Source: an uncultured Spirochaetaceae bacterium (GTDB lineage: Bacteria > Myxococcota_A > UBA9160 > UBA4427). Taken from it: a stretch of 64,000 nt of DNA. The notes below the pieces were generated by a model. That model saw only the letters and a program-made list of their open reading frames with translations, had not been told where the DNA came from and did no database searches. The DNA lies in NCBI GenBank assembly GCA_964515335.1, contig CAZETS010000016.1, forward strand, positions 5,744-69,743. Reading direction: 5' to 3'. Each line of letters starts with the position of its first letter. Position 1 is the stretch's first letter. Below, piece by piece: positions 5,851 to 63,409 of the stretch. The translations under genes were made by a program, and so were the position numbers.

Positions 5851-6813
5851 ATGAACGAGCGACGAGCGCCCGGCTCGGGCGGTGCCGAAGCGACGCGTCG
5901 CAAAGCGGGCACGCGCTTCGACCTCACCGGGGTCGTCGCCGCCGGCGACACCCACGTCGGCCGGGTCCGCAGCGTCAACCAGGACGACCACGGAGAGTGG
6001 CGCGACGCGGATCGACCGGCGCAGCTCTTGTTCGTGGCCGACGGCATGGGCGGGCACCGCGGCGGCGAGGTCGCCAGCCGCGTCGCCGTCGAGCAGGTCG
6101 GCCTGGCGTTCGGCGCGGACGACCCCGATCCCGAGCGCCTGCTCGGCGATGCGTTCGAACGCGCCAATCGCGAAGTCTTCCAGATGGCCAAACGCGACTT
6201 CGAGCTGGCCGGCATGGGGACCACCGGGGTCGCCCTGCTGCTCACCGGCGAGCCGACCGCCTGGGTGGCCCACGTCGGCGACAGCCGCGCGTACCGCCTG
6301 CGCGACGGCGAGCTCGAGGCGCTGACCAGCGATCACTCGGTGGTCGGCGAGCTGGTCCGGCGCGGACAGCTCACGCCCGAGCAGGCGCGCGTCCACCCGC
6401 AGAGCAACGAGATCCTGCGCGCGATCGGCACGCAGCCCGAGGTAAACGTCGACATCGCCGCCGTGGACGTGCGGCCGGGCGACCGCTTCCTGCTCTGCTC
6501 CGACGGCCTCTGCGGCATGCTGCCCGACGACGAGATCGCTCGGGCGCTCGGCGCGGCACCGCCCCCCGAAGCCGTCGGACGGCTGATCGATCTCGCCAAC
6601 GAGGCCGGAGGCACCGACAACATCACCGTGCAGATCGCCGAGATCCCTCGCGACGCCGCCACCATCGGCACGCCGAACGGCGAGGAGACGCGCGCGCCGT
6701 CACCAGGACCCGAGTCGGCTGCGGCCGGCACGGCCATCCGCTGGGTGGTGGCCCTCGCCCTGGTGGGCGCTCTGCTGCTGCTGCTGCTCGGCGGCTCGGG
6801 CACGTCGCGCTAG
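5851..6813 (+). CDS. PP2C-family Ser/Thr protein phosphatase with a C-terminal membrane anchor
   Basis: GRVRSVNQDD, FVADGMGGHRGGEVAS, HVGDSRAY, LLCSDGL, GGTDNITV. The C-terminus has a hydrophobic WVVALALVGALLLLLLGG segment. Confidence 0.9.
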   Translation: MNERRAPGSGGAEATRRKAGTRFDLTGVVAAGDTHVGRVRSVNQDDHGEWRDADRPAQLLFVADGMGGHRGGEVASRVAVEQVGLAFGADDPDPERLLGDAFERANREVFQMAKRDFELAGMGTTGVALLLTGEPTAWVAHVGDSRAYRLRDGELEALTSDHSVVGELVRRGQLTPEQARVHPQSNEILRAIGTQPEVNVDIAAVDVRPGDRFLLCSDGLCGMLPDDEIARALGAAPPPEAVGRLIDLANEAGGTDNITVQIAEIPRDAATIGTPNGEETRAPSPGPESAAAGTAIRWVVALALVGALLLLLLGGSGTSR

Positions 6814-6817
6814 CGCG

Positions 6818-9400
6818 ATGACGTTCGACCGCGACGAGGAGCCCGGCGCCGCGCGCACGGGCTCGCCAACGCGACTGTTCGACTTCCTTCCCGAGGGCGG
6901 CATACACGACAGCGCCGTCGTCCTCGATCGCTTCCTCGCCTGGGTGCGCGAGCAGGGCCTCGAGCCCTACGCGGCCCAGGAAGAAGCGCTGCTCGAGCTG
7001 ATGACCGGGCGCCACGTGATCCTCTCCACGCCGACGGGATCGGGCAAGAGCCTGGTCGCCCTCGGGCTCCACTGGAAGGCGATGTGCGAAGAGCGCCGCT
7101 CGTTCTACACGGCGCCCATCAAGGCTCTCGTGAGCGAGAAGTTCTTCGACCTCTGCGGGCACTTCGGCGCCGAGAACGTCGGCATGCTGACGGGCGACGC
7201 GAGCCTGAACTGGAGCGCACCGATCATCTGCTGCACCGCCGAGGTGCTGTCGAACATGTCGGTAGCCCAGGGGGCGCGTGCCGACGCGCCCTACGTGGTG
7301 ATGGACGAGTTCCACTACTACGGCGACCGCGACCGGGGCAGCGCCTGGCAGATCCCGCTGCTCACGCTTCCGCACACGCGCTTCCTGCTGATGTCGGCCA
7401 CGCTCGGCGACACGCGGGAGATCGAACGGCGCATCTTCGCCCGCACCGGCGTCGAGGTCTCGCGCATCCACACCGAGGAGCGACCGGTTCCGCTCGACTT
7501 CCGCTACGTCGAGACACCGATCCACGAGACGGTCGACGATCTCCTCCTGCGCGGCGAGGCGCCGATCTACATCGTGCACTTCACCCAGCGCGAGGCCACC
7601 GAGCAGGCTCAGGCGCTGACCAGCGCGAACCTCGTCGACAAGCCGCGGCGGCGGGCCATCCAGGAGGCGATCGGCGACTTCCGCTTCGACACGCCCTTCG
7701 GCCGCGACATGCGGCGACTGCTCGGCCACGGCATCGGCCTCCACCACGCGGGCCTGCTCCCGAAGTACCGCCTGCTCTGCGAGCGCCTCGCCCAGCAGGG
7801 CCTGCTCGCCGTGATCTGCGGCACCGACACCCTCGGCGTGGGCGTGAACGTGCCGATCCGCACGGTGCTGTTCACGAAGCTCTCCAAGTTCGACGGCGAG
7901 AAGGTCTCCATCCTGCGCGTGCGCGACTTCAAGCAGATCGCCGGACGCGCCGGACGCAAGGGCTTCGACGACCGCGGCACGGTCGTCGTGCAGGCGCCGG
8001 AGCACGTGATCCTGAACAAACGTGCCGAGGATCGTGCGCGCGGGGCGGGCGGACGGCGCAAGCCCCCGCGCAAGAAGACGCCGCCCAGGGGATTCGTGGG
8101 CTGGGGGAAGGACACCTTCGACCGGCTCGTGCACAGCCCGCCCGAGACGCTGCGATCGCGATTCACGGTCACGCACGGGCTGATCGTCGCGTGCCTGCAG
8201 AGCGAGGCGGGCCACGGCGACGCAGGCCGGGGCTACCACGCCCTGTCCGACCTGATCGACCTCTGCCACGAGACGCCGGAGCGCAAGCGCCGGCTGCGGC
8301 GCCAGGCGGCGGCGCTCTTTCGGTCGCTCCGAAAAGCCGAGGTGGTCGAGCTGGTCCGCGACCGAAGCACGGGACGCGTGGGGGTGCGCGTCAGCCAGGA
8401 GCTGCAGCGCGAGTTCTCGCTGCACCAGAGCCTCTCCCTCTACCTGGTCGACGCCGCGGCCGCTCTCGACCCCGAAGCGCCCGACTACGCGCTCGACCTG
8501 CTGAGCGTCACCGAAGCGATCCTCGAAGATCCGCGCCCCATCCTCTACGCCCAGGAACGCAAGGCCAAGGGGGAGCTGATCGCGCGGCTCAAGGCCGAGC
8601 GCGTCCCCTACGAGGAGCGCATGGAGAAGGTCGATGAGGTGAGCTGGCCCAAGCCGGGCGAGGAGTTCATCCGCGCGACCTTCGCCCTGTTCGCCGACCA
8701 CCATCCGTGGGTGGGCGGAGACGACATCCATCCGAAGGGCGTCGCGCGCGAGATCTACGAGACGTACTCCGAGTGGAGCGACTACGTGAAGCGGATGGAG
8801 ATCGCCCGGGTCGAGGGGCTGCTGCTCCGCTATCTCGGCCAGGTGCACGACACGCTGGTGCGCACCGTGCCCGCCTCGCAGAAGACCGAAGAGGTGCACG
8901 ACATGACGGCTTTCTTTCGCTCGATGGTGGGCCGCGTCGACTCGAGTCTGCTGCAGGCCTGGGAGGAGATGATCCGCCCCGGCGAGCCGGCGCCCACGCC
9001 CGAGGAGCCGCGCGAGTACGACCTGGCCCAGGACGAGCGCGGCCTGCGCGCCCGCATTCGCAGCGAGCTCCAGCCGATCGTGCGCGCGCTCGCCGCGAAG
9101 CGCTACGGCGACGTCCCCGAGCTGCTCCACCCGGACAGCCGCAAGGGCTGGACGCCCCAGCGCATCGAGCAGGCCCTCGATCCGTTCTACGAGCGCTACG
9201 AGGCGATCCTCTACGACCCCCGCGCCAGACAGGCGCACCTTTGCGTGGTCGACGAGATCGAGCCGCGTCTGTGGCGAGTCCGCCAGGTGCTGCTCGACGA
9301 CGCCGACGACCGCTTCTTCGCCATCGACGGCGAGGTGGACCTGCGCGACGAGAAGAACCCGGGCGACCCGCTGCTGCGCCTGCGCGCGATCGGCGAGTAG
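6818..9400 (+). CDS. DEAD/DEAH-box (Ski2-like) helicase with a long DUF3516-type C-terminal region
   Basis: Motif I TPTGSGKS, motif II MDEFHYYGD, motif III SATLG and motif VI QIAGRAGRKG. The ATG is 4 nt after the PP2C stop. Confidence 0.88.
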   Translation: MTFDRDEEPGAARTGSPTRLFDFLPEGGIHDSAVVLDRFLAWVREQGLEPYAAQEEALLELMTGRHVILSTPTGSGKSLVALGLHWKAMCEERRSFYTAPIKALVSEKFFDLCGHFGAENVGMLTGDASLNWSAPIICCTAEVLSNMSVAQGARADAPYVVMDEFHYYGDRDRGSAWQIPLLTLPHTRFLLMSATLGDTREIERRIFARTGVEVSRIHTEERPVPLDFRYVETPIHETVDDLLLRGEAPIYIVHFTQREATEQAQALTSANLVDKPRRRAIQEAIGDFRFDTPFGRDMRRLLGHGIGLHHAGLLPKYRLLCERLAQQGLLAVICGTDTLGVGVNVPIRTVLFTKLSKFDGEKVSILRVRDFKQIAGRAGRKGFDDRGTVVVQAPEHVILNKRAEDRARGAGGRRKPPRKKTPPRGFVGWGKDTFDRLVHSPPETLRSRFTVTHGLIVACLQSEAGHGDAGRGYHALSDLIDLCHETPERKRRLRRQAAALFRSLRKAEVVELVRDRSTGRVGVRVSQELQREFSLHQSLSLYLVDAAAALDPEAPDYALDLLSVTEAILEDPRPILYAQERKAKGELIARLKAERVPYEERMEKVDEVSWPKPGEEFIRATFALFADHHPWVGGDDIHPKGVAREIYETYSEWSDYVKRMEIARVEGLLLRYLGQVHDTLVRTVPASQKTEEVHDMTAFFRSMVGRVDSSLLQAWEEMIRPGEPAPTPEEPREYDLAQDERGLRARIRSELQPIVRALAAKRYGDVPELLHPDSRKGWTPQRIEQALDPFYERYEAILYDPRARQAHLCVVDEIEPRLWRVRQVLLDDADDRFFAIDGEVDLRDEKNPGDPLLRLRAIGE

Positions 9401-34601: not shown

Positions 34602-34619
34602 CTCCGGGATACGCGGGGC

Positions 34620-35453
34620 TCAGATTCCCTCGTCGGCCAGCCGCAGCGCCGCCTCGACGCTGCCGTCGCTCTCGCGCAGCAGCCTTCGCGCCTCGAGCTT
34701 CTCGACGTTTGCGAGCGACATCACGATGCGCACGGCGCGCCCACGGAGCTTGCTCGACACCGGGTCGACGTGGGTCATCAGATTGCCGCGCACCTTGCCC
34801 AGTCTCACCATCACAGCGGTCGACAGGAGCGACAGCACCATCTTCTGCGCCAGGCCGCCCTTCATGCGCGTCGAGCCAGCGACGACTTCGGGACCCACCA
34901 CCGGAGCGATGCTGATCTCCGCGGCCTCGGCCAGCGGCGAGTGGGGGTCGCAGGTGATCGCGATCGTGCGCGCGCCCACCTCGTGGGCGGCGTCGAGCCC
35001 GCCGAGCGCAAAGGGCGTGCGACCGCTCGCCGAGATGGCCACCACTGCGTCGCCGAGGGTCAGGCCGCGCTCCTGCAGCTCGAAGACGGCCGACTTGGGA
35101 TCGTCCTCGGCGCCCTCCACCGCGTGGCGCAGCGCACGGTCGCCGCCGGCGATCAGGCCCTGCACGGTGCGCGGCGGGATACCGTAGGTGGGCGGCATCT
35201 CCGAGGCGTCGAGCACACCGAGCCGCCCGCTCGTGCCGGCACCCACGTTGAACCAGCGCCCGCCGCCACCGATCACGGTGGCGAGCACCTCCACCGCCTC
35301 GGCGATGCAGGGCAGCACGCGGCCGACGGCGGCGTGCGCGTTGGCGTCCTCGTCGTGGATCAGGCGGAGCACGTCGGCGACCGGGCGGCGATCGAGATCG
35401 CGCGCCGCGTCGAGCAGAGCCTCGGTGGGGAAGTCCGTGCCGTTGCCAGCCAT
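34620..35453 (-). CDS. murQ: N-acetylmuramic acid 6-phosphate etherase
   Basis: Internal ATG at 35453. SIS-domain motifs GAGTSGRLG, AISASGRTP and AGSTRMKGG. Confidence 0.9.
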   Translation of the reverse strand: MAGNGTDFPTEALLDAARDLDRRPVADVLRLIHDEDANAHAAVGRVLPCIAEAVEVLATVIGGGGRWFNVGAGTSGRLGVLDASEMPPTYGIPPRTVQGLIAGGDRALRHAVEGAEDDPKSAVFELQERGLTLGDAVVAISASGRTPFALGGLDAAHEVGARTIAITCDPHSPLAEAAEISIAPVVGPEVVAGSTRMKGGLAQKMVLSLLSTAVMVRLGKVRGNLMTHVDPVSSKLRGRAVRIVMSLANVEKLEARRLLRESDGSVEAALRLADEGI

Positions 35454-35516
35454 CGACAGAGGCTTTCGGCCGATCGCCCGCCAGTCATGAGGGCCGGAAG
35501 CTACAGTTCGTCCGTG

Positions 35517-37970
35517 ATGTTCCGCGTCGACCAGCAGACCCTCGAAGCGCTCGAGTGGCCCGAGGTGATGGCGCGCCTCGCCGACGCCTGCCGGACCGAG
35601 CGCGCGCGCCGACAGCTTCTCGAACAGGCCGCTACACCCACGTCGGAAGAGTCCGCCGAGGTGGCAGACTGCGTGTTCCCTGCCGATCGGGCGGAAACCC
35701 TCGCACGGCTTCGCGAGACCGACGAGGCGCGAGCCCTGCTCGACGCCGACGAGGCGCCGCCGATCGGCGCCACGGCCGACGTCGCCCGCCTGCTCGATCG
35801 CGCCGAGCGGGGCGCCGTGCTCGATGCGGGCGAGCTGCTCGACGTACGCGCCTGCGCGGAGACGCTGCGCGGGGTGTCGCGCTTTCTCTGCGCGCCGGGC
35901 CGCTCCGAGCGCGCACCGGCGCTCGCCGAAACCGCGTGGGTCATCGAGGCGCCCGAGGGCATCGATCACGAGATCGCTCGCTGCATCGATCCCGGCGGAG
36001 AGCTGCGCGACGCGGCGTCGCCCGCGCTCGCCGAGGCGCGCCGCGCGAGCCTCCGGCTCGGCGGCGAGCTCAAGCGTCGCCTCGAGCGCTACCTGCAGGA
36101 CACGGACGTCACCGGTCACCTGTCCGACCGCTACTTCACGGTGCGCAACGACCGCTACGTGCTGCCCGTCAAGGCCGACGCCAAGGGCCACGTGCGCGGC
36201 ATCGTGCACGACGCCTCGCGCTCGGGCACGACGCTCTTCATCGAGCCCGAGGGCGCCGTCGAGCTGAACAACCAGCTGAAGCGCGCCGAGCTCGACGTCG
36301 AGCGCGAGACCGAGCGCGTGCTGCGCGCGCTGTCGGCCGCCGTCGCCGGGGTGGCGCCGGCCCTGCGCGCCGGACTCGACGCGCTCACCCGCATCGACCA
36401 CGCGTTCGCGCGCGGGCGACTCTCGCAGCAGATGGACGCCACCTCGCCGAGCACCGCTGAGGACGGCGTCTTCGAGCTGCCCGCCCTGCGCCACCCGCTG
36501 ATCCACCCCGACGAGTGCGTGCCCAACGACGTGCGCCTCGGCGCGGACTTCCAGGTGCTCGTGCTGTCCGGGCCGAACGCCGGCGGCAAGACGGTCACCC
36601 TCAAGGCGACGGCCCTCGCCGCCTTGCTGGTGCGCGCGGGGCTGCACGTCCCGTGCGGCACGGGTGCGCGCGTGGATCTCGTCGAGGACGTGATCGCCGA
36701 CATCGGCGACGGACAGGACATCGGCGAGAGCCTCTCGACCTTCTCGGCCCACATGGCCAAGCAGGCGCGCATCGTCGAGCGCGCCGGACCGCACACCCTC
36801 GTCGTGCTCGACGAGATCGGCGTCGGCACCGACCCGAGCGAGGGCGCGGCTCTCGCCCAGGCGATCCTCGAGCGCCTTTCGGACGCGGGCGCTCGTGTCG
36901 TCACCACGACCCACTACGGGCTGCTCAAGGAGATGGCCAACGTCGATCCGCGCTTCGAGAACGCCAGCGTCGAGTTCGATGCGGAGACGCTCGCGCCGAC
37001 CTACCGCCTGCGCGTCGGCGAGCCGGGCTCCTCGTCGGCTGCCGCGGTGGCTTCGCGCATGGGCATGCCGAGCGACGTGCTCGAGCGCGCCGATGCGCTG
37101 CAGCGTCGCGAGGACCGCCAGCTCGACCGCATGCTCGCCGAGCTGTCCGCCAGCCGCGCGACACTCGAAAGCGAGCGCCGCCAGATGGCCGAGCTGCGGG
37201 CCGAGAGCGAGGCGGTGCGCGACGACTACCGGGCCCGGCTCGAGCGGCTGCAGGAGCGGCGCGACGACCTGTACCGCAGCATGCGTGACGACCTCGACGC
37301 CGCGTTCAAGGAAGCGCACCAGGAGGTCGCCGGCGTGATCCGCGAGCTGCAGGGCGGCCCCACCTCGCAGAAGGCCGCGGCGGCCCGCGAGCGCCTCGTC
37401 GAGCTCGAAGCCAGGGCCCGCGCCGACGAGGCCGCAGCGGGCGTGCCGCGGGCACCGGTCCGTCCTCCGGACGCCGCTCCCGTCGACTGGCGCCGGGCAC
37501 GAGCCGGCGACACCGTGCGCGTGTCGGGCGGGCGCGAGGGCGTGCTGCTGAGCCTCCCCGATCGCCGGGGGCGGGCGACGGTTCGCGTGGGCGCCGCCAA
37601 GCTCGTGCTGCCCGCCGAGCAGATCGGGCAGGCCGCGCCGGGCAGCGCGCAGACGCGCGCCGGAGCCGGCGATCGCGTGCGTGTGGAGCGGGCCCGGGCG
37701 ACCGGCGACGACGCCTCGCTGGCGGGCGGGACGAGCGAGTGCGACCTGCGTGGTCTGCGCGTAGACGAGGCGCTCGACCGCCTGGGCGAGCTGATCGACC
37801 GCGCGGCCGCCGACGGACGGGACACCGTGCGCGTCGTCCACGGCCACGGGTCCGGCGCTTTGCGGCGTGCGGTGCGCGACCAGCTCGCCGCGTCGCCCCT
37901 GGTGGCGGATCTCCGCGCCGGCGGCAACGACGAAGGCGGAGAAGGCGCGACCATCGCGACACTTCGCTGA
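35517..37970 (+). CDS. mutS2: Endonuclease MutS2 (MutS domain V plus C-terminal Smr)
   Basis: Walker A LSGPNAGGKTVTLK, LDEIGVGTDP and the Smr tail DLRGLRVDEAL...VVHGHGSGALR. Alternative ATG at 35487. Confidence 0.9.
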   Translation: MFRVDQQTLEALEWPEVMARLADACRTERARRQLLEQAATPTSEESAEVADCVFPADRAETLARLRETDEARALLDADEAPPIGATADVARLLDRAERGAVLDAGELLDVRACAETLRGVSRFLCAPGRSERAPALAETAWVIEAPEGIDHEIARCIDPGGELRDAASPALAEARRASLRLGGELKRRLERYLQDTDVTGHLSDRYFTVRNDRYVLPVKADAKGHVRGIVHDASRSGTTLFIEPEGAVELNNQLKRAELDVERETERVLRALSAAVAGVAPALRAGLDALTRIDHAFARGRLSQQMDATSPSTAEDGVFELPALRHPLIHPDECVPNDVRLGADFQVLVLSGPNAGGKTVTLKATALAALLVRAGLHVPCGTGARVDLVEDVIADIGDGQDIGESLSTFSAHMAKQARIVERAGPHTLVVLDEIGVGTDPSEGAALAQAILERLSDAGARVVTTTHYGLLKEMANVDPRFENASVEFDAETLAPTYRLRVGEPGSSSAAAVASRMGMPSDVLERADALQRREDRQLDRMLAELSASRATLESERRQMAELRAESEAVRDDYRARLERLQERRDDLYRSMRDDLDAAFKEAHQEVAGVIRELQGGPTSQKAAAARERLVELEARARADEAAAGVPRAPVRPPDAAPVDWRRARAGDTVRVSGGREGVLLSLPDRRGRATVRVGAAKLVLPAEQIGQAAPGSAQTRAGAGDRVRVERARATGDDASLAGGTSECDLRGLRVDEALDRLGELIDRAAADGRDTVRVVHGHGSGALRRAVRDQLAASPLVADLRAGGNDEGGEGATIATLR

Positions 37971-56847: not shown

Positions 56848-58359
56848 GTGTCACGCGTGATGAGCGCCGCGCTGCTCGGCGTAGACGGACACCCCGTCGA
56901 AGTCGAAGTTCGCATCAGCTCGCAGCTGCCGCGCATCGACATCGTCGGACTCGCCGAGGCGTCGGTTCGCGAGAGCGCGGCGCGCGTGCGGGCGGCCATC
57001 TCGGCCTCGAACGAGCGGTTCCCCCAGAGCCGCGTCACCGTCAATCTCGCGCCCGCGTCGCTGCGCAAGTCGGGCGCGGCGCTCGATCTCGCGATCGCGG
57101 CGGGGGTGTTGCTCGCGAGCGACGCGATCGCGCCCGAGGCGGCCGACGGCACCGCGTTCGTCGGCGAACTCGCCCTCGACGGCCGCCTGCGTCCGGTCCG
57201 CGGCATGCTCGCGATGGCGCTCGCCGCCCGCCACGCAGGCTGCAAGCGCCTCGTGGCGCCGGCGGCGTGCGCCGAACAGGCGGCCCTCGCCCCCGACATC
57301 GAGGTGCTCGCCGCGGAGAGCCTCTGCGCGGTGATCGAGCATCTGCGCGGCGGCGAGCCACTGCAGCGGGCCGTGCCCCTGCCACGCGCGGCCATCGCTT
57401 TGGAGGGCGCGTGCCTGAGCGAGGTGCGGGGCCAGGCGATCGCCAAACGCGGCCTGCTCATCGCGGCCGCCGGCGGCCACGGACTGCTGCTGATCGGGCC
57501 TCCCGGGGCCGGCAAGACGATGCTGGCCCGGCGCCTGCCCGGCCTGCTGCCGCCCCTCGACGAGGCCGAAATGCTCGAGGCCACCCGGGTCCACGGTGCG
57601 GCGGGCCTGCTGCCCGAGCAGGGCGGCGCCGTGCGGACGCGTCCCTTCCGCGCCCCGCACCACAGCGCGAGCGCAGCGGGCGTGTTCGGCGGCGGACAGC
57701 CGCTGCGACCCGGCGAGGTGTCGCTCGCACATACCGGCGTGCTCTTCCTCGACGAGCTGCCCGAGTTCGAACGGCGCGTCCGCGAGTCGCTGCGTCAGGT
57801 GGTCGAGGAACGCGACATCGTGCTGTCGAGAGCCGGCCACGCCTGTCGCTTTCCGGCAGACTTCATGCTGGTCTGTGCCGCCAACCCGTGTCCGTGCGGC
57901 TGGTACGGCAGCGATCGGCAGGACTGCCGCTGCGACGAGCAGACCGTCGAGCGCTATCGGCGACGCATCTCGGGGCCGCTGCTCGATCGCATCGATCTCC
58001 ACGTGAGCGTGCCCGCGCAGCCCTGGGCCGAGATCGCGGGCGAGGTCGACGGCGAGACGAGCGCCGCCCTGGCCGAGCGCGTGCGCGACGTGCGCGACCG
58101 GCAGCGCGCGCGCGGCGCTCCGTGCAGCGCACGCATCGCCGACCGACACCTCGACGACCACGTGCGCGCCGACACCGGGGCCCGGGCGCTGCTCGGGCAC
58201 GCGGTGGACCGGCTGGCGCTCTCGGCGCGTGCGGCCCGGCGCGTGCTGCGGGTGGCGCGCACCATCGAGGATCTCGAGGGCGGCGAGCGGGTCGGCGCCG
58301 ACGCGATCGCCGAGGCGCTCGCCTACCGCTCCGAGCGTCCGCGGGGGCCGGCCTGGTGA
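56848..58359 (+). CDS. comM: YifB/ComM-family Mg-chelatase-like AAA+ protein
   Basis: MSRVMSAALLGVDGHPVEVEV, Lon-like N-terminal domain, Walker A LIGPPGAGKTM, FLDELPEF and a Cys-rich insert. GTG start. Confidence 0.92.
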   Translation: MSRVMSAALLGVDGHPVEVEVRISSQLPRIDIVGLAEASVRESAARVRAAISASNERFPQSRVTVNLAPASLRKSGAALDLAIAAGVLLASDAIAPEAADGTAFVGELALDGRLRPVRGMLAMALAARHAGCKRLVAPAACAEQAALAPDIEVLAAESLCAVIEHLRGGEPLQRAVPLPRAAIALEGACLSEVRGQAIAKRGLLIAAAGGHGLLLIGPPGAGKTMLARRLPGLLPPLDEAEMLEATRVHGAAGLLPEQGGAVRTRPFRAPHHSASAAGVFGGGQPLRPGEVSLAHTGVLFLDELPEFERRVRESLRQVVEERDIVLSRAGHACRFPADFMLVCAANPCPCGWYGSDRQDCRCDEQTVERYRRRISGPLLDRIDLHVSVPAQPWAEIAGEVDGETSAALAERVRDVRDRQRARGAPCSARIADRHLDDHVRADTGARALLGHAVDRLALSARAARRVLRVARTIEDLEGGERVGADAIAEALAYRSERPRGPAW

Positions 58360-58511
58360 GCCCGGGCCGGGGTGACCGTACGTATTTCGACACCCCGCGA
58401 CCGAGAATCGTCACCCCGTACGTGCCCGCGGGTTCGCGCCGCTTGCGGCGGCGCGCAGCAAACCTCCGGAATCACGAGTGTTTCCAGATCCGAGGCCGGC
58501 CCTGCAAAGAC

Positions 58512-58527
58512 TGGCACGCCTGATGCA
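58512..58527 (+). promoter_or_regulatory. Sigma-54 (-24/-12) promoter
   Basis: TGGCACGCCTGATGCA against the consensus TGGCACG-N4-TTGCW. GG and GC are correctly spaced, with one mismatch at the first T of TTGC. It lies 88 nt upstream of ATG 58615. Confidence 0.6.
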
Positions 58528-58614
58528 ACTGCAATGGCTACGCGCGCAGAGCGCGCGTGCCCGGCTGACCGACCCAGGGCTGCCGGCAGGCGCACGAGCA
58601 GGGGAAGACGAGCC

Positions 58615-58920
58615 ATGAGCGCACCGGCGACCACCGTACCGATCCAGCACAACCAGGTAGTCCACCAGGTCCGCACGAGGCGGACCGACGACGCCCGAGC
58701 GGCGTCACCGGCGCCCGCCGCGAGGGTGCCCGAAGAGCCCATCCGCGGGCACAGCGTGAGCGGGCAGTACACGCTGCTCGAGCTCGTCGAGGCCATCAGC
58801 GACGTCACCGACGACGAGCGCGAGGTCGTCGTCACGGTCGTGCACCTGCTCGCCACCGGTCGGGTCAAGCTCTGCGGCAACTTCCGCGACGAGCCGATCG
58901 AGCGCTTCCTCGCCGGCTAG
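58615..58920 (+). CDS. Small hypothetical protein (101 aa) directly upstream of top6B
   Basis: MSAPATTVPIQHNQVVHQVRTRR...GQYTLLELVEAISDVTDDEREVVVTVVHLLATGRVKLCGNFRDEPIERFLAG. GGGGAAG precedes the ATG. GC3 is high in the C-terminal half. No family recognised. Confidence 0.55.
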   Translation: MSAPATTVPIQHNQVVHQVRTRRTDDARAASPAPAARVPEEPIRGHSVSGQYTLLELVEAISDVTDDEREVVVTVVHLLATGRVKLCGNFRDEPIERFLAG

Positions 58921-59000
58921 GAGCCGGGCCCGATCCACACGGCCGCGTCCCGCCCGAACGTGATCTATGATCGCGTCGGAATCGCTGGGGGGCGAGGACG

Positions 59001-60839
59001 GTGGCCACCGCGAAACGGGGCAGCGCAAAGTCGCGCGGACGCGCCAGCAAGGCGTCGGGCAAGCGCGCGGCGAAGAAGCGCGCACGGGGCCGGGCCAAGG
59101 CAAAGGCAAAGGCGAAGGCGAAGACGAAGGCCGGGGCGAAGGCCGGGGCCAAAGCCACCACCAGGGCCAGCGCCAAGGCGGCGGGCCGGCGCGGCGCCGG
59201 GGCGACCGCCCGCAAGCGCTCCGCCGCGAAGGCCAGCGCGGCCCGCAAGCGCGCCGCCACCCCGAAGCAGCCCGTCGCGGGCGACGCCGCCGAGGAGATG
59301 GCGGCCAGGCAGCGGGACATCTCGGTCTCCGAGTTCTTCGCCAAGAACCGCCACCTGCTCGGCTTCGACAACCCCTCGAAGGCGCTGCTCACCACCGTCA
59401 AGGAAGGCGTCGACAACGCCCTCGACGCCTGCGAGGAGGCGGGCGTCCTCCCCGACATCCGCGTCGAGATCACCGCGGTGAGCGACGCCCGCTACCGCAT
59501 CGCCATCGAGGACAACGGCCCGGGCATCCTGCGCGCCCAGGTGCCGAAGATCTTCGGGCGGCTGCTCTACGGCTCGAAGTTCCACCGGCTGCGCCAGAGC
59601 CGGGGCCAGCAGGGCATCGGCATCAGCGCGGCGGGCATGTACGGCCTGCTCACCACCGGCAAGCCGGTCGTCATCCTCACCCGCACCGGCAAGCGCCGCG
59701 ACGCCCACCACTTCGAGCTCGTGATCGACACGCAGAAGAACCGCCCGCACGTCCGCAAGGACGACGTCGTCAAGTGGAAGAAGGACCACGGCACGCGCGT
59801 CGAGATCGAGCTCGAGGGCAACTACCGCGGCGGTCAGCACTCGGTCGACAACTACATCCGGCAGATCTCGCTCGCCAACCCGCACGCCCGCATCACCTAC
59901 GTGCCGCCGGTCGCCGAGGAGCACGGCGAGGAACACGACTTTCCGCGCGTCACGAAGACGCTTCCGCCGCAGACCGACGAGATCAAGCCGCACCCCTACG
60001 GGGTCGAGCTCGGCGTGCTGATGCAGATGTTCCGCGACACCGGCTCGCGCCAGCTCGCCGCCTGCCTGAAGACCGACTTCTCCCGCGTGTCGCCGCGGGT
60101 CGCCGCCGAGATCTGCGAGAAGGCGGGCGTCTCGCCCAAGCGTCGGCCCGGCGAGATCAAGCGCGAAGAGGCTGACGCCATCTACAAAGCGATCCAGAAG
60201 ACGAAGATCATGAGCCCGCCGACGGACTGCATCGCGCCGATCGGCGAGGAGCTGATCGTCAAGGCCATGAAGGCCGAGGTCGACGCCGATTTCTACACGG
60301 CCGTGACGCGGCGGCCGACGGTCTACCGCGGCAACCCGTTCCTGGCGGAGGTGGGCATCGCCTACGGGGGCAGCATGGGGGCCGAAGACAGCGCCACCGT
60401 CTACCGCTACGCGAACCGCGTGCCGCTGCAGTACCAGCAGGGCGCCTGCGCGATCACCCGCGCGGTCTCCACCACCAACTGGAAGTCCTACGGGCTGCAG
60501 CATCCGCGCGGCGCGCTGCCGATCGGGCCGATGCTGGTGATGGTCCACATCGCGAGCGTCTGGGTGCCGTTCACCTCCGAGAGCAAGGACGCCGTCGCCC
60601 ACTACCCCGAGATCATCAAGGAGTTCCGCTTCGCCCTGCAGGAGTGCGGCCGGCGCATGGGCAACTTCGTGAGGCGGCGGCAACGCGAGGCCGACGCCGC
60701 CAAGAAGGCGGCCTACATCGAGCAGTACATCCCTCAGGTCGCGATCGGCATCCAGCACATCCTCGACCTCGGCGAGCGCGACACATCGCGACTCGTGAAC
60801 GGACTCACCGACGTGCTCGAGCGCACCCGCAAGCTCTGA
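59001..60839 (+). CDS. top6B: DNA topoisomerase VI subunit B (GHKL ATPase) with an Ala/Lys/Arg-rich N-terminal extension of about 95 aa
   Basis: Bergerat-fold motifs [17 protein letters not shown] and [11 protein letters not shown], plus [18 protein letters not shown]. The N-terminus contains [21 protein letters not shown]. The GTG start follows GAGGA. Confidence 0.9.
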
Positions 60840-60880
60840 AGCGCGGGGCGGACGACCGGATCGCGCAGAGAGGCAACGCC

Positions 60881-62167
60881 GTGGCGGCACGCAAGAAGGC
60901 AGCAGCAAAGAAGAAGCGGCGGGCCGCCGCGCCCGCGAAGCGCAAGGCCGCGGCGCGCAAGGGCGGCGCCCGCAAGAAGGCAGCGCGCGGCGCGAAGAAG
61001 CGCGCAACGAAGAAGCGCGCCGCCAAGAAGAAGGCGGCCGCTCCGAAGCGCGGCGGGCGCAAGCCGAAGGGCAAGGACTCGACGACCGTGCGCCTGATCG
61101 TCGACACCGCGAAGGAGGTGCGCGGCGAGATCCTCAAGAAGCGCAAGCCCGACCTGACGTTTCCCGTGCGCTCCCTCGGCAACGTCTCCTACTCGACGAA
61201 AAAGGGCTACTTCGAGATCGGCCGACAGCGCAAGACGCGAACCCTCACGGTCAACACCGTGCGCAGCTTCGCGCAGACGCTGCGGCTGATGGGCCTCTCG
61301 AAGGATCTGATCGAGGCCAGCGACTTCGCGACGAAGCGGGACGCCTACTACCAGAGCAAGAACTGGGAGGCCGCCAAGTTCGACGACCAGAGCGAGTCGG
61401 ACACCGTGATGGACGACATCGAGGCGCTGTTCAGCGTGCGGGGCGTCTCCCGCGAGCAGCTGCGCTTCGTGCCCGACGAGCACGGCGGTGCGGTGGCCGG
61501 CCGGCTGACCGTGCTCGACCCCGACCTCGACACCGGCCGCGTCGAGCGCATCGACTGCACGCGCTTCGGCTCGGGCGCCTACTCGATCCCCTCCAGCGTC
61601 GAGCAGCTCTCGTTCGAGACGAAGGCGAAGTTCATTCTGGCCGTCGAGACCGGCGGCGTATTCCAGCGGCTGCAGAGCCACAAGTTCTGGCAAACGGCGA
61701 ACTGCATCCTGGTCTCGCTGGCCGGCGTGCCGACGCGTTCGACGCGGCGCTTCATCCGCAAGCTGTCCGACGACTGCAAGCTGCCGGTCTACGCCTTCGT
61801 CGACTGCGACCCCTACGGCTTCTCGAACATCTACCGCACCCTCAAGGTCGGCTCGGGCAACGCGGCCCACATCTCGCAGTTCTTCTCGGTCCCCCAGGCC
61901 CGCTACCTCGGGGTGACACCGCAGGACATCATCGACTACGAGCTGCCCACGCATCCGCTGCAGGAAGTCGACATCAAGCGCGCCCGCGACGCCCTCAAGA
62001 ACGACCCGTTCTTCAAGACCCACAAGCCGTGGCAGAAGGCCATCGAGCAACTGATCGAGATGGGGGTGCGCGCCGAGCAGCAGGCACTGGCAATGTGGGG
62101 ACTGAATTACGTCATCGACGAGTACCTGCCCGCCAAGCTCCGCCGCACCGCCGATTTCCTGCCCTGA
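60881..62167 (+). CDS. top6A: DNA topoisomerase VI subunit A (Spo11 homologue) with a Lys/Arg/Ala-rich N-terminal extension of about 55 aa
   Basis: Catalytic-Tyr region ATKRDAYYQS, Toprim Glu in ILAVETGGVF and the DxD motif FVDCDPYG. The N-terminus reads AARKKAAAKKKRRAAAPAKRKAAARK... GTG 60881 follows AGAGAGG. The track ORF start at 60644 lies inside top6B. Confidence 0.9.
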   Translation: MAARKKAAAKKKRRAAAPAKRKAAARKGGARKKAARGAKKRATKKRAAKKKAAAPKRGGRKPKGKDSTTVRLIVDTAKEVRGEILKKRKPDLTFPVRSLGNVSYSTKKGYFEIGRQRKTRTLTVNTVRSFAQTLRLMGLSKDLIEASDFATKRDAYYQSKNWEAAKFDDQSESDTVMDDIEALFSVRGVSREQLRFVPDEHGGAVAGRLTVLDPDLDTGRVERIDCTRFGSGAYSIPSSVEQLSFETKAKFILAVETGGVFQRLQSHKFWQTANCILVSLAGVPTRSTRRFIRKLSDDCKLPVYAFVDCDPYGFSNIYRTLKVGSGNAAHISQFFSVPQARYLGVTPQDIIDYELPTHPLQEVDIKRARDALKNDPFFKTHKPWQKAIEQLIEMGVRAEQQALAMWGLNYVIDEYLPAKLRRTADFLP

Positions 62168-62211
62168 GCCGTGCGATCTGACGTAGGATGAGCGCCGCGG
62201 GACGAGTGCGA

Positions 62212-62262
62212 AGCTGGGGCGAGAGCAAAGCTGGGACGAGAGCAAAGCCGGGGCGAGGAGCG
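62212..62262. repeat. Three copies of a 17-nt tandem repeat immediately upstream of rfbA
   Basis: AGCTGGGGCGAGAGCAA (62212-62228), AGCTGGGACGAGAGCAA (62229-62245), AGCCGGGGCGAGGAGCG (62246-62262). The last copy contains the GAGGAG SD of rfbA. Confidence 0.85.
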
Positions 62263-62269
62263 GGAAGCA

Positions 62270-63148
62270 ATGAAGGGGATCATCCTGGCGGGCGGCTCGG
62301 GGACCCGCCTGTACCCCATCACGCTCGGCGTCAGCAAGCAGCTGCTGCCCGTGTACGACAAGCCGATGATCTACTACCCGCTGTCGATGCTGATGCTGGC
62401 GGGCATTCGCGACATCCTCGTCATCTCGACGCCCCACGATCGCCCGGCCTTCGAGCGGGTGCTGGGCGACGGCTCGCGGATCGGGCTGCGCATCGAGTAC
62501 GCCGAGCAACCCGCGCCGGAGGGCATCGCGCAGGCGTTCCTGATTGGCGAGTCGTTCCTGGACGGGCAGCCGGTCGCGCTCGCGCTCGGCGACAACATCT
62601 TCTATGGCACGGGCCTGCGCGCGAGCCTCCAGCGCGCCGCGGAACGCAGCGAAGGCGCCACGATCTTCGGCTACCGGGTGCGCGATCCCGAGCGCTACGG
62701 CGTCGTCGAGTTCGACGAGAGCGGACGCGCCGTGAGCATCGAGGAGAAGCCCGCGCACCCGAAGTCCCACCACGCGGTGACCGGCCTCTACTTCTACGAC
62801 GCCGACGTCGTCGAGATCGCGAAGTCGCTGTCGCCGTCGGCTCGCGGCGAGCTCGAGATCACCGACGTGAACGTCGCCTACCTCGAACGGGGAGCCCTGC
62901 ACGTCGAGCTGCTCGGACGCGGCGTGGCCTGGCTCGACACGGGCACCCACGAATCGCTCCAGCAGGCGTCGAGCTTCATCCAGGCCATCCAGGAGCGACA
63001 GGGTCTCGAGATCTCGTGCATCGAGGAGATCGCCTTCCGGCAGGGCTGGATCGGCGCAGCCGAGCTGGCCGAGATCGGCCGCCGCATGAGCAACAACCGC
63101 TACGGCGCGTATCTCCTCGAGCTGGCCGAGAACGCGGAGTCGCGGTGA
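62270..63148 (+). CDS. rfbA: Glucose-1-phosphate thymidylyltransferase
   Basis: [43 protein letters not shown] and EKP..PKS. Confidence 0.95.
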
Positions 63149-63250: not shown

Positions 63251-63409
63251 TCAGACGTCCTCTTCGGCGTCGAGGTGGTCGTCGCCGTAGTTGGCCGTGA
63301 GCACGAGCGGCGCCCCGCAGACCGAGCAGAAGATCTCTTCGCCCTTGCGCTCGTCGCCACCGAGCGGCACGTCGGCGCTGCAGATCGGGCAGCTGACCTC
63401 GTTCTTCAT
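63251..63409 (-). CDS. 52-aa zinc-ribbon protein with an acidic tail (LysW-like architecture)
   Basis: MKNEVSCPICSADVPLGGDERKGEEIFCSVCGAPLVLTANYGDDHLDAEEDV. Has CPxC...CxxC and GGGAAGG before the ATG. It lies 47 nt downstream of the alkaline-phosphatase-family gene. Confidence 0.6.
   Translation of the reverse strand: MKNEVSCPICSADVPLGGDERKGEEIFCSVCGAPLVLTANYGDDHLDAEEDV

Follow-up and report, generated by a model that had tools for sequence, protein, structure and literature searches.

A bacterial topoisomerase VI with translated polycationic N-terminal tails on both subunits, predicted to act as DNA tethers

The DNA analyzed here is a stretch of 64 kb (the window), in which the genes for the two subunits of DNA topoisomerase VI (topo VI) are adjacent and form one apparent operon. 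The top6B gene (positions 59001 to 60839, + strand; GTG start at 59001, TGA stop at 60839) encodes subunit B of 612 amino acids (aa). It is followed by top6A (60881 to 62167, + strand), which encodes subunit A of 428 aa. The mechanically delimited top6A ORF opens at 60644, but the real start is the GTG at 60881, 41 nucleotides (nt) past the top6B stop. The 41-nt spacer harbors a Shine-Dalgarno-like AGAGAGG (60868 to 60874, + strand), about 6 to 7 nt upstream of this GTG. When the + strand was scanned from 58300 to 62400, no terminator-like site was found between the two genes. Products of the same 612 and 428 aa were called independently on four metagenome contigs.

Directly upstream of top6B lies orf101 (58615 to 58920, + strand), a small conserved ORF of 101 aa and a candidate accessory gene. 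GC3 climbs to 0.85-1.0 from about position 58612, GGGGAAG precedes the ATG at 58615, and the 101-aa gene was called on four contigs. The conserved gene order is comM-orf101-top6B-top6A-rfbA, and the C-terminal domain of orf101 (~45 aa) recurs ahead of top6B, in the same orientation, in 42 of 50 related loci. Searches of Pfam and NCBIfam gave no family for orf101; its sole PDB match was NifU-like and nonsignificant (E = 0.7).

The catalytic core of Top6B (59289 to 60839, + strand) comprises GHKL ATPase, H2TH, and transducer domains. It matched the NCBIfam model for DNA topoisomerase VI subunit B (NF003218) with 680.9 bits (cut-off, 274) over residues 96 to 603, TIGR01052 with 555 bits (cut-off, 380.7), and the Pfam families HATPase_c and Topo-VIb_trans (PF09239, E = 3e-59). 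The motifs EGVDNALDA, DNGPGI, and GQQGIGIS are located at residues 135, 171, and 202, respectively. They contain the Bergerat/GHKL set: E135, N139, and D142 of the N-box (ExxxNxxD), DNGPG at 171-175 (G1), and GQQGIG at 202-207 (G2). These key residues have counterparts in the aligned structures from M. mazei and S. shibatae and were invariant among 58 homologues. In the transducer, the switch lysine K529 lies within SESKDA, and the WKxY motif is present as WKSY (494-497).

The Top6A core (61073 to 62167, + strand) consists of a winged-helix/5Y-CAP domain with R153 and Y157 and a Toprim domain with E256 and D308/D310. Pfam matches were TP6A_N (PF04406, E = 1.6e-14), Topo_VI_alpha, and TOP6A-Spo11_Toprim (PF21180, E = 3e-60). 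KRDAYYQS was located at residue 152, VETGG at 255, and FVDCDPYG at 306; the catalytic Y157 is encoded at 61349-61351. In alignments to M. jannaschii 1d3y and M. mazei 2q2e, R153 and Y157 correspond to R99 and Y103 of 1d3y (numbered from the start of the construct), and all catalytic residues (R153, Y157, E256, D308/D310) were invariant in 58 homologues. The NCBIfam Top6A equivalog cut-off was not reached (best model NF003337, 461.7 bits versus 675; all six models below cut-off). This shortfall does not weaken the identity of Top6A, because these models are narrow and lineage specific, and the Pfam domains and PDB alignments pass.

Judged by its sequence, the locus encodes a complete two-subunit type IIB topoisomerase (topo VI, A2B2) with every catalytic motif kept, in agreement with the initial sequence-only reading, which had described an adjacent and catalytically intact gene pair. 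The predicted function of the A2B2 complex is ATP-dependent double-strand passage, that is, relaxation and decatenation. Gadelle in 2014 and Takahashi in 2020 reportedly described topo VIII and Mini-A as divergent type IIB genes carried by plasmids or viruses and not recognized by Top6 models. An assignment to topo VIII or Mini-A was ruled out: here, the subunits are separate and chromosomal, they lie between the housekeeping genes comM and rfbA, and the Top6B equivalog was passed. Neither gyrase nor topo IV was found among ten window ORFs scanned against Pfam, the four largest included.

The architecture and the gene pair are those of archaeal topo VI (M. mazei 2Q2E and 9O0G; S. shibatae 2ZBK; M. 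jannaschii Top6A 1D3Y), with GHKL, H2TH, and transducer domains in B, WHD and Toprim domains in A, and all catalytic residues in common (E = 8e-157 for B versus M. mazei; E = 2.5e-109 for A versus M. jannaschii). Subunit A is close to Methanococcales, which agrees with a published bacterial cluster (PMC11302465). The same enzyme has been catalogued in the same phylum, in Anaeromyxobacteraceae, Vulgatibacteraceae, Polyangiaceae, and others, as well as in further phyla (Allen & Maxwell 2024, PMC11302465), where it was attributed to horizontal transfer from Euryarchaeota. Three differences from the archaeal enzymes were found. Top6B lacks the Ig-like C-terminal domain of M. mazei (612 aa including a 96-aa tail versus 621 aa). 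The crossing-sensing loop, KGRR in M. mazei, is RGGQ (276-279) in the window, and this degeneration is conserved in the clade. Finally, only 5 to 30 residues precede the first conserved motif in archaeal subunits, which are devoid of a basic tail, whereas both window subunits have one.

The Top6B tail is encoded at 59001 to 59288 (+ strand), with the boundary at residue 96 according to PDB alignment and an AlphaFold2 model, and the Top6A tail at 60881 to 61072 (+ strand), with the boundary at residue 64 in the AlphaFold2 model. Depending on the boundary used, the extensions measure about 92-96 aa (B) and 53-64 aa (A). Residue 5 of M. mazei Top6B aligns with our residue 96, and residue 6 of its Top6A with our residue 58; the ~92-96 and ~53-57 aa obtained from this alignment match the lengths estimated initially (~95 and ~55 aa). 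The long Lys/Ala/Arg-rich character reported for both extensions was also borne out. Residues 1-102 of Top6B (cut before ARQRDI) contain 19 K, 14 R, 37 A, and only 3 D+E (net charge +30, pI 12.0), and residues 1-68 of Top6A contain 21 K, 11 R, 22 A, and 1 D+E (net charge about +31, pI 12.0). AlphaFold2 modeled both as coil with pLDDT <50, through about residue 96 in Top6B and for residues 1-64 in Top6A, so both are predicted to be disordered. In six frames of the 64-kb window, these two N-termini are the only Lys-rich basic low-complexity stretches.

The tails had been called histone H1-like, and this holds for their composition only. When the tails alone were searched against Pfam with a threshold as loose as E<=10, no family was hit, the linker-histone and HC2 profiles (PF00538, PF07382) included; one homologue (P0211) has a precomputed PF07382 match. 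The likeness to H1, Hc1, and Hc2 is thus compositional, since no homology was detected.

We considered whether the tails are translated at all. In top6B, the GTG at 59001 and the ATG at 59298 (M100) are the only in-frame starts, and an in-frame stop is located 33 nt upstream of the former, at 58968. The real proteins could begin at archaeal-like N-termini, with the upstream sequence being an untranslated leader. M100 lies precisely at the archaeal protein start and is preceded by GAGGAG, and some database homologues are annotated without a tail (P0396 and P0106, 513 aa each; P0231, 364 aa). However, the GAGGAG touches the ATG with zero spacing, and GC3 in the tails (0.93 in B, 0.89 in A) is a coding signature comparable to that of the cores (0.97 and 0.95). 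The M100 position is occupied by Leu in 78 of 113 tailed homologues. At the DNA level, 35 of 56 related loci use CTC, CTG, or CTT for this Leu, so translation cannot start there in those relatives. Homologues share the first residues of each subunit (MAxAKR in B; MAARKK in A, clade-wide), and length changes keep the frame: the B tail of the cluster member P0392 is short by exactly one AK unit, and A homologues with 94-95% identity bear tails that are 25-34 aa longer. In top6A, the start at 60881 has a good ribosome binding site, while the next GTG (61088) has none, and a start at that GTG would cut away sequence with counterparts in M. mazei Top6A. Misassigned start codons are therefore highly improbable, and a start-site artefact was rejected on the basis of GC3, conserved N-termini, in-frame indels, and the Leu at the M100 position. 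As read from these sequence features, both tails are translated parts of the proteins. The refuting condition named in the initial reading, true starts downstream of the basic regions, was thus not borne out. Some database entries begin at the internal Met and conceal the tail, which is an annotation problem worth flagging.

Next to this single locus, relatives were surveyed. A metagenome scan used alignment-derived core patterns; a single-protein Top6A scan of genome contigs gave at least 12 loci among the matches listed, and the survey of named species was thin. Nearly all of approximately 240 close homologues, as well as 50 paired loci, bear basic tails. On these comparisons, tailed topo VI characterizes a very large group of uncultured bacteria of Myxococcota type, a label taken from the names of close homologues and loci; the exact window proteins were found on metagenome contigs only. 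The tails had been regarded as unusual; this stands insofar as no description of such tails on topo VI was found in a literature search, but they are not a one-off. Topo VI in Myxococcota was already known, and the apparently undescribed feature is the tails. The study by Allen & Maxwell used trimmed alignments and AlphaFold cores (PMC11302465). Its text contains neither "lysine" nor "disordered," its sole "N-terminal" refers to the GHKL domain, and tails, clamp-binding-like motif (see below), and orf101 are not described.

Across the clade, the composition of the tails is conserved while their sequence diverges, with sequence conservation far below that of the cores. Mean K+R and D+E fractions were 0.32 and 0.04 in 105 B tails and 0.46 and 0.02 in 107 A tails, which suggests selection on charge rather than on sequence. 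Another explanation would be neutral low-complexity expansion, in which a permissive N-terminus tolerates the slippage of short GC-rich repeats. Parts of both tails are indeed built on tandem repeats of hexa- and pentadeca-nucleotide units, among them a (GCN-AAG)n repeat (59093 to 59143, + strand; TRF period 6, 8.5 copies) that encodes (AK)n in the B tail and has a strain-variable length. Tail length also differs between close relatives, and the tail sequences diverge fast. Such drift sits poorly with a charge that is positive in essentially all homologues and in both subunits, at a D+E content of 0.02-0.04: only 1 of 100 tails has a net charge <=0, and that one is a 2-residue stub whose start is probably misassigned. 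It also sits poorly with the conserved N-terminal hexapeptides, with the lack of such a segment in any other gene of the window, and with the enrichment of Lys, which has AT-rich codons and uses the preferred AAG, against the bias of a genome with ~71% GC. We consider neutral expansion quite improbable. A GC-content artefact was rejected as well: Lys codons oppose the GC bias, and the tails are not a GC by-product, because the relatives that carry them range from 48 to 72% GC and include Lys-rich tails at 48-54% GC (L005, L006, and L018).

In 29 of the 50 paired related loci, the extension of exactly one subunit contains a motif resembling those that bind the beta sliding clamp. The consensus, said to stem from work by Dalrymple in 2001, is QL[SD]LF, QxxLxF, or QLxLxL in a disordered terminus. 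Examples are QESFAF, QLVLGL, QPSLF, and QGELSF, usually at residues 4-9, and shuffled tails gave 0.7 matches per 100 tails. The motif-bearing extensions, which occur in about one-half of these loci, are much less basic: the median net charge of B was +8 in motif loci versus +21 in motif-less loci. Both window tails lack the motif. The putative clamp-binding motif in many relatives implies that the extension may be a general targeting module, beyond DNA binding, and the occurrence of the less basic type in about half of the loci suggests that the ancestral role may be protein targeting.

Polycationic intrinsically disordered regions are equally able to bind RNA, polyphosphate, or acidic proteins. 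The extensions could accordingly be mainly flexible linkers that target non-DNA partners (replisome, RNA, polyphosphate, or nucleoid condensates), with charge being secondary. The frequency of the clamp-binding-like motif over shuffled tails speaks for this possibility, as does the association of the H1-like AlgP with polyphosphate granule spacing (PMC9239181). We regard it as unlikely: the window's own tails are motif-less and, at +30 (B) and +32 (A) in this comparison, fall into the most cationic class, as if a charge-based mode had taken over, and DNA is both the substrate of the enzyme and the most abundant polyanion nearby.

Based on sequence, structure models, and analogy, we favor a functional topo VI whose translated, disordered, polycationic arms probably serve as nonspecific DNA tethers that raise affinity and residence time. 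Since each extension carries a charge of about +30, an A2B2 enzyme would have four flexible arms with roughly +120 in all. The arms would bind duplex DNA electrostatically and without sequence specificity, and would hold the enzyme on the nucleoid, in keeping with the tethering to DNA or the nucleoid suggested in the initial reading. They may also assist in retaining or catching the second (T) duplex, and could lift the processivity, and with it decatenation, of a normally slow and distributive enzyme. The T-segment enters at the ATP gate, and the B tail is predicted to exit there, from the N-terminal "strap" (strap geometry, PMC13040014); the A tail would exit beside the A-B stalk, which the G-segment would follow. 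This geometry supports a DNA-binding role of the arms. Very strong nonspecific binding could, however, inhibit a strand-passage enzyme instead of aiding it. Compensation by the tail for a weak crossing sensor (the RGGQ loop) is only a lead, because the KGRR-equivalent loop varies widely across other Top6B clusters (mean of about 2 basic residues).

The best functional analogy to the predicted DNA tethers is actinobacterial TopA (Streptomyces, Mycobacterium; PMC5714199, PMC7398561), likewise a topoisomerase of high-GC bacteria with a disordered Lys/Ala-rich tail. In Streptomyces topoisomerase I, C-terminal lysine repeats stabilize the enzyme-DNA complex and confer high processivity (PMC5714199). 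TopA shows no homology and is a single polypeptide that performs type IA single-strand passage and has a C-terminal tail, whereas the window enzyme is type IIB with an N-terminal tail on each subunit. Plant and protist topo VI is also supplemented by DNA-binding modules beyond the archaeal core; plant topo VI needs the DNA-binding accessory proteins RHL1 and BIN4, both absent from bacteria (PMC11302465). There, the modules are separate proteins, while here they are fused tails. Similar Lys/Ala/Arg(/Pro) low-complexity regions occur in Chlamydia Hc2, Pseudomonas AlgP, Streptomyces DdbA, the N-terminal extension of Deinococcus HU, and the C-terminal extension of bacterial Ku (PMC2848022, PMC9239181, PMC3643593, PMC9900698, PMC4889933). 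Hc2 also shares the repeat-driven length variation. No sequence homology to the window tails was detected, and none of the regions belongs to a type II topoisomerase.

A broader view, which we put forward tentatively and hold to be doubtful, is that N-terminal targeting modules, differing between lineages, were added to bacterial topo VI and make up for the deficits of the slow, distributive archaeal core. Many lineages would have their enzyme anchored at the replisome by a beta-sliding-clamp-binding motif on one subunit; in the lineage of the window, this motif would have been replaced by paired polycationic tails that tether the enzyme directly to DNA. The orf101 product would be a third, dedicated component.

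What topo VI does in bacteria is treated as an open question in the literature (PMC11302465). In vitro, archaeal topo VI is slow, highly distributive, and a poor binder of linear DNA, too slow and distributive for replication, and missing accessory factors for rate and processivity have been proposed (PMC8837201, PMC5922973). The clade described here amounts to a natural experiment: its core enzyme is combined with about +120 charges of DNA-binding-type disordered tails per heterotetramer, while sister lineages bear a clamp-binding-like motif. It offers the testable hypothesis that topo VI owes its physiological competence to being tethered, either to DNA or to the replisome.

The interval 59001-62167 of the window, whose GC content is ~71%, is filled by two co-directional ORFs on the + strand. 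The gene top6B runs from GTG 59001 to TGA 60839 and encodes 612 aa; its product matched the NCBIfam equivalog NF003218 (topoisomerase VI [topo VI] subunit B) over residues 96-603 with 680.9 bits (cut-off 274) and contains the Pfam domains HATPase_c and Topo-VIb_trans. A mechanical ORF listing opens top6A (60881-62167, 428 aa) at 60644; we reassigned its start to GTG 60881, which lies 41 nt after the top6B stop codon and has AGAGAGG just upstream. Top6A contains TP6A_N, an all-beta domain, and the Top6A/Spo11 Toprim domain. On four metagenome contigs that encode identical proteins, genes called independently likewise have products of 612 and 428 aa. Alignment to solved structures showed that the catalytic residues are intact in Top6B (E135/N139/D142, DNGPG 171-175, and GQQGIG 202-207, with the switch lysine K529 and WKSY 494-497 also kept) and in Top6A (R153/Y157, which are R99/Y103 of M. 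jannaschii by our own count, E256, and D308/D310). The catalytic residues of both subunits are invariant across alignments of 58 homologues per subunit. The sequence-only reading of the pair as a complete, catalytically intact topo VI was thus largely right on enzyme identity and anatomy, with all motifs it quoted found in place and the domain models in agreement. The enzyme itself is a member of a known family.

Long basic N-terminal extensions had been claimed for both subunits, and their presence was confirmed. Since Top6B residue 96 aligns with residue 5 of M. mazei Top6B, and Top6A residue 58 with residue 6 of M. mazei Top6A, the extra sequence amounts to ~92-96 aa in B and ~53-57 aa in A. 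The B tail (residues 1-102) contains 19 K, 14 R, 37 A, and 3 D+E (net charge +30, pI 12), and the A tail (residues 1-68) contains 21 K, 11 R, 22 A, and 1 D+E (net charge +31, pI 12). An A2B2 holoenzyme would carry a charge of ~+120 spread over four arms. In a six-frame scan, the two tails were the sole Lys-rich basic low-complexity segments of the 64-kb window. AlphaFold2 predicted folded cores for both subunits and, with a 58-sequence alignment, coil with pLDDT values below 50 for almost all of B residues 1-106 (first helix at 97-105) and for A residues 1-64. Neither tail, when searched alone, matched a Pfam family at E<=10; the term H1-like, originally applied to the tails, is therefore valid for their composition and not for their ancestry.

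Both tails are translated. The GC3 is 0.93 in the B tail vs 0.97 in the core and 0.89 in the A tail vs 0.95 in the core, and codon choice is alike in tails and cores (e.g., AAG >> AAA). In the B reading frame, a stop codon lies 33 nt before GTG 59001, and the only other possible start is ATG 59298 (M100). At the M100 position, 78 of 113 tailed B homologues have Leu; 35 of 56 fetched loci use CTC, CTG, or CTT there, none of which can initiate. The N terminus is of the MAARKK type in most of 120 A homologues and MAxAKR in the closest B homologues, and tail length changes between relatives stay in frame. A start-site artefact, with the true starts lying downstream of the tails, was rejected on these grounds: tail GC3, noninitiating Leu codons, conserved N termini, and in-frame indels. 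The database entries of the close homologues P0396, P0106, and P0074 (513-515 aa) and P0231 (364 aa) are annotated from an internal Met with the tail omitted, and 90%-identical cluster mates of tail-less entries include it. Because start calling is inconsistent, the tails are hidden in databases.

Parts of both tails are encoded by short tandem DNA repeats with periods of 6, 12, and 15 (59093-59143 and 60941-61030, + strand). In the strain variant P0392, a (GCN-AAG)n hexanucleotide repeat is shorter by exactly one AK unit, indicating that slippage alters tail length in frame, as it does in chlamydial Hc2; among A subunits with 94-95% identical cores, tails are 25-34 aa longer. Sequence divergence is much faster in tails than in the core. 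An unlikely rival explanation is that the tails are neutral repeat expansions. Among 100 tails of related loci, the net charge was <=0 in one, a 2-residue stub with a probably misassigned start. Lys-rich tails were also found in relatives of 48-54% GC, so GC-rich codons do not explain them.

Whether the tails co-occur in related genomes was answered in the affirmative: extensions are present in 45/50 B and 49/50 A subunits of related loci with both genes complete. Nearly all of the best 120 matches per subunit have basic N-terminal tails (B: median 71 aa, K+R 0.32+/-0.07, D+E 0.04; A: median 77 aa, K+R 0.46+/-0.04, D+E 0.02). Most of these matches are metagenome proteins, and the source-labelled ones come from MAGs tagged Myxococcota or "Deltaproteobacteria". 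The tails are a clade-wide feature, not unique to the window. Clustering at 50% reduced the whole clade to one representative, P0241, itself tailed. Most other Top6B clusters begin 10-30 residues ahead of the ISVxEFF motif, and their short N termini and frequent inteins suggest an archaeal origin.

Of 50 paired related loci, 29 have a short motif resembling the bacterial beta-clamp-binding motif in the extension of one subunit only (25 in B, 4 in A, 0 in both), with 0.7 matches expected per 100 shuffled tails; the loci are not phylogenetically independent. The usual B form is M-A-[DE]-Q-E-x-F-A-F at residues 4-9; the B N terminus of locus L004 reads MGDQESFAF, and the alternatives are QLVLGL (L001 and L072), QPSLF (L035 and L051), and QADLF (KQADLFS in L005 and L006). 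Loci whose B subunit is not extended have the motif in A (QGELSF, QGELGF, and QPELAF in L008, L012, and L010). The motif also occurs among proteins P0035-P0119. It suggests that bacterial topo VI is tethered to the replisome via a putative clamp-binding site; a full-text literature search found no paper on such a motif in bacterial topo VI. A less likely explanation of the tails is that they serve non-DNA partners. In motif-less loci, the window included, tails are longer and carry more positive charge (median B +21 vs +8, A +16 vs +8).

The 101-aa orf101 (58615-58920, +), directly upstream of top6B, has a conserved C-terminal domain of ~45 aa (TLLELVxAxxEVTxDExEVVATVxHxLRSGRVRLCGNFRG), which is found at the same position and strand in 42/50 related loci. 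It gave no Pfam or NCBIfam match and no significant PDB match, and may be an accessory factor of bacterial topo VI. The order comM-orf101-top6B-top6A-rfbA is shared with Myxococcota-type loci; here, the ComM/YifB Mg-chelatase-like ATPase is encoded at 56848-58359 (+) and the glucose-1-phosphate thymidylyltransferase RfbA at 62270-63148 (+). The surroundings are ordinary chromosomal housekeeping genes, including a DEAD-box helicase with DUF3516 (6587-9400, +), MutS2/Smr (34602-37970, +), and a small LysW-like zinc-ribbon ORF (63251-63409, -). Among ten window ORFs scanned, no gyrase, topo IV, or mobile-element gene was found.

Bacterial topo VI has been published, including three Myxococcota families and one cluster adjoining Methanococcales (PMC11302465), which fits M. 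jannaschii as the best structural match of Top6A. The alignments in that study were trimmed, and its text is silent on lysine-rich or disordered N termini. Full-text searches, including N-terminal extensions, clamp-binding motif, and Myxococcota, found no description of topo VI tails, in line with the remark from the sequence that they were not known to have been characterised. As a topo VI variant, the paired polycationic tails are new; a topoisomerase with a fused basic tail has a precedent in type IA. Basic tails are common on DNA enzymes of high-GC bacteria, and for this reason the finding will not shock a specialist.

As a relaxase, archaeal topo VI works extremely slowly and in a highly distributive manner; it has poor affinity for linear DNA and a preference for DNA crossings, and accessory factors that would make it faster or more processive have been postulated (PMC5922973; PMC8837201). 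Plant topo VI requires two DNA-binding partners, RHL1 and BIN4 (PMC11302465), and in Streptomyces topoisomerase I, fused lysine repeats stabilise the enzyme-DNA complex and confer high processivity (PMC5714199). By analogy, the most likely role of the four flexible polycationic arms would be to keep the enzyme on DNA, and they could help to hold a second duplex. The B tail is a continuation of the N-terminal strap, a segment exchanged between the GHKL domains at the ATP gate, and the A tail emerges upstream of the winged-helix domain, which touches the Top6B stalk at its C-terminal end (PMC13040014). In M. mazei, strand passage requires the KGRR DNA-crossing sensor; the matching loop reads RGGQ here (59826-59837, +; Top6B residues 276-279). 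RGGQH is conserved in the clade, with two of three basic residues lost; xKGRx is mostly kept in other Top6B clusters. Since variation of the loop is seen in other lineages as well, compensation by the tail is only a lead. The finding gives a direct way into the question of how topo VI becomes physiologically competent.
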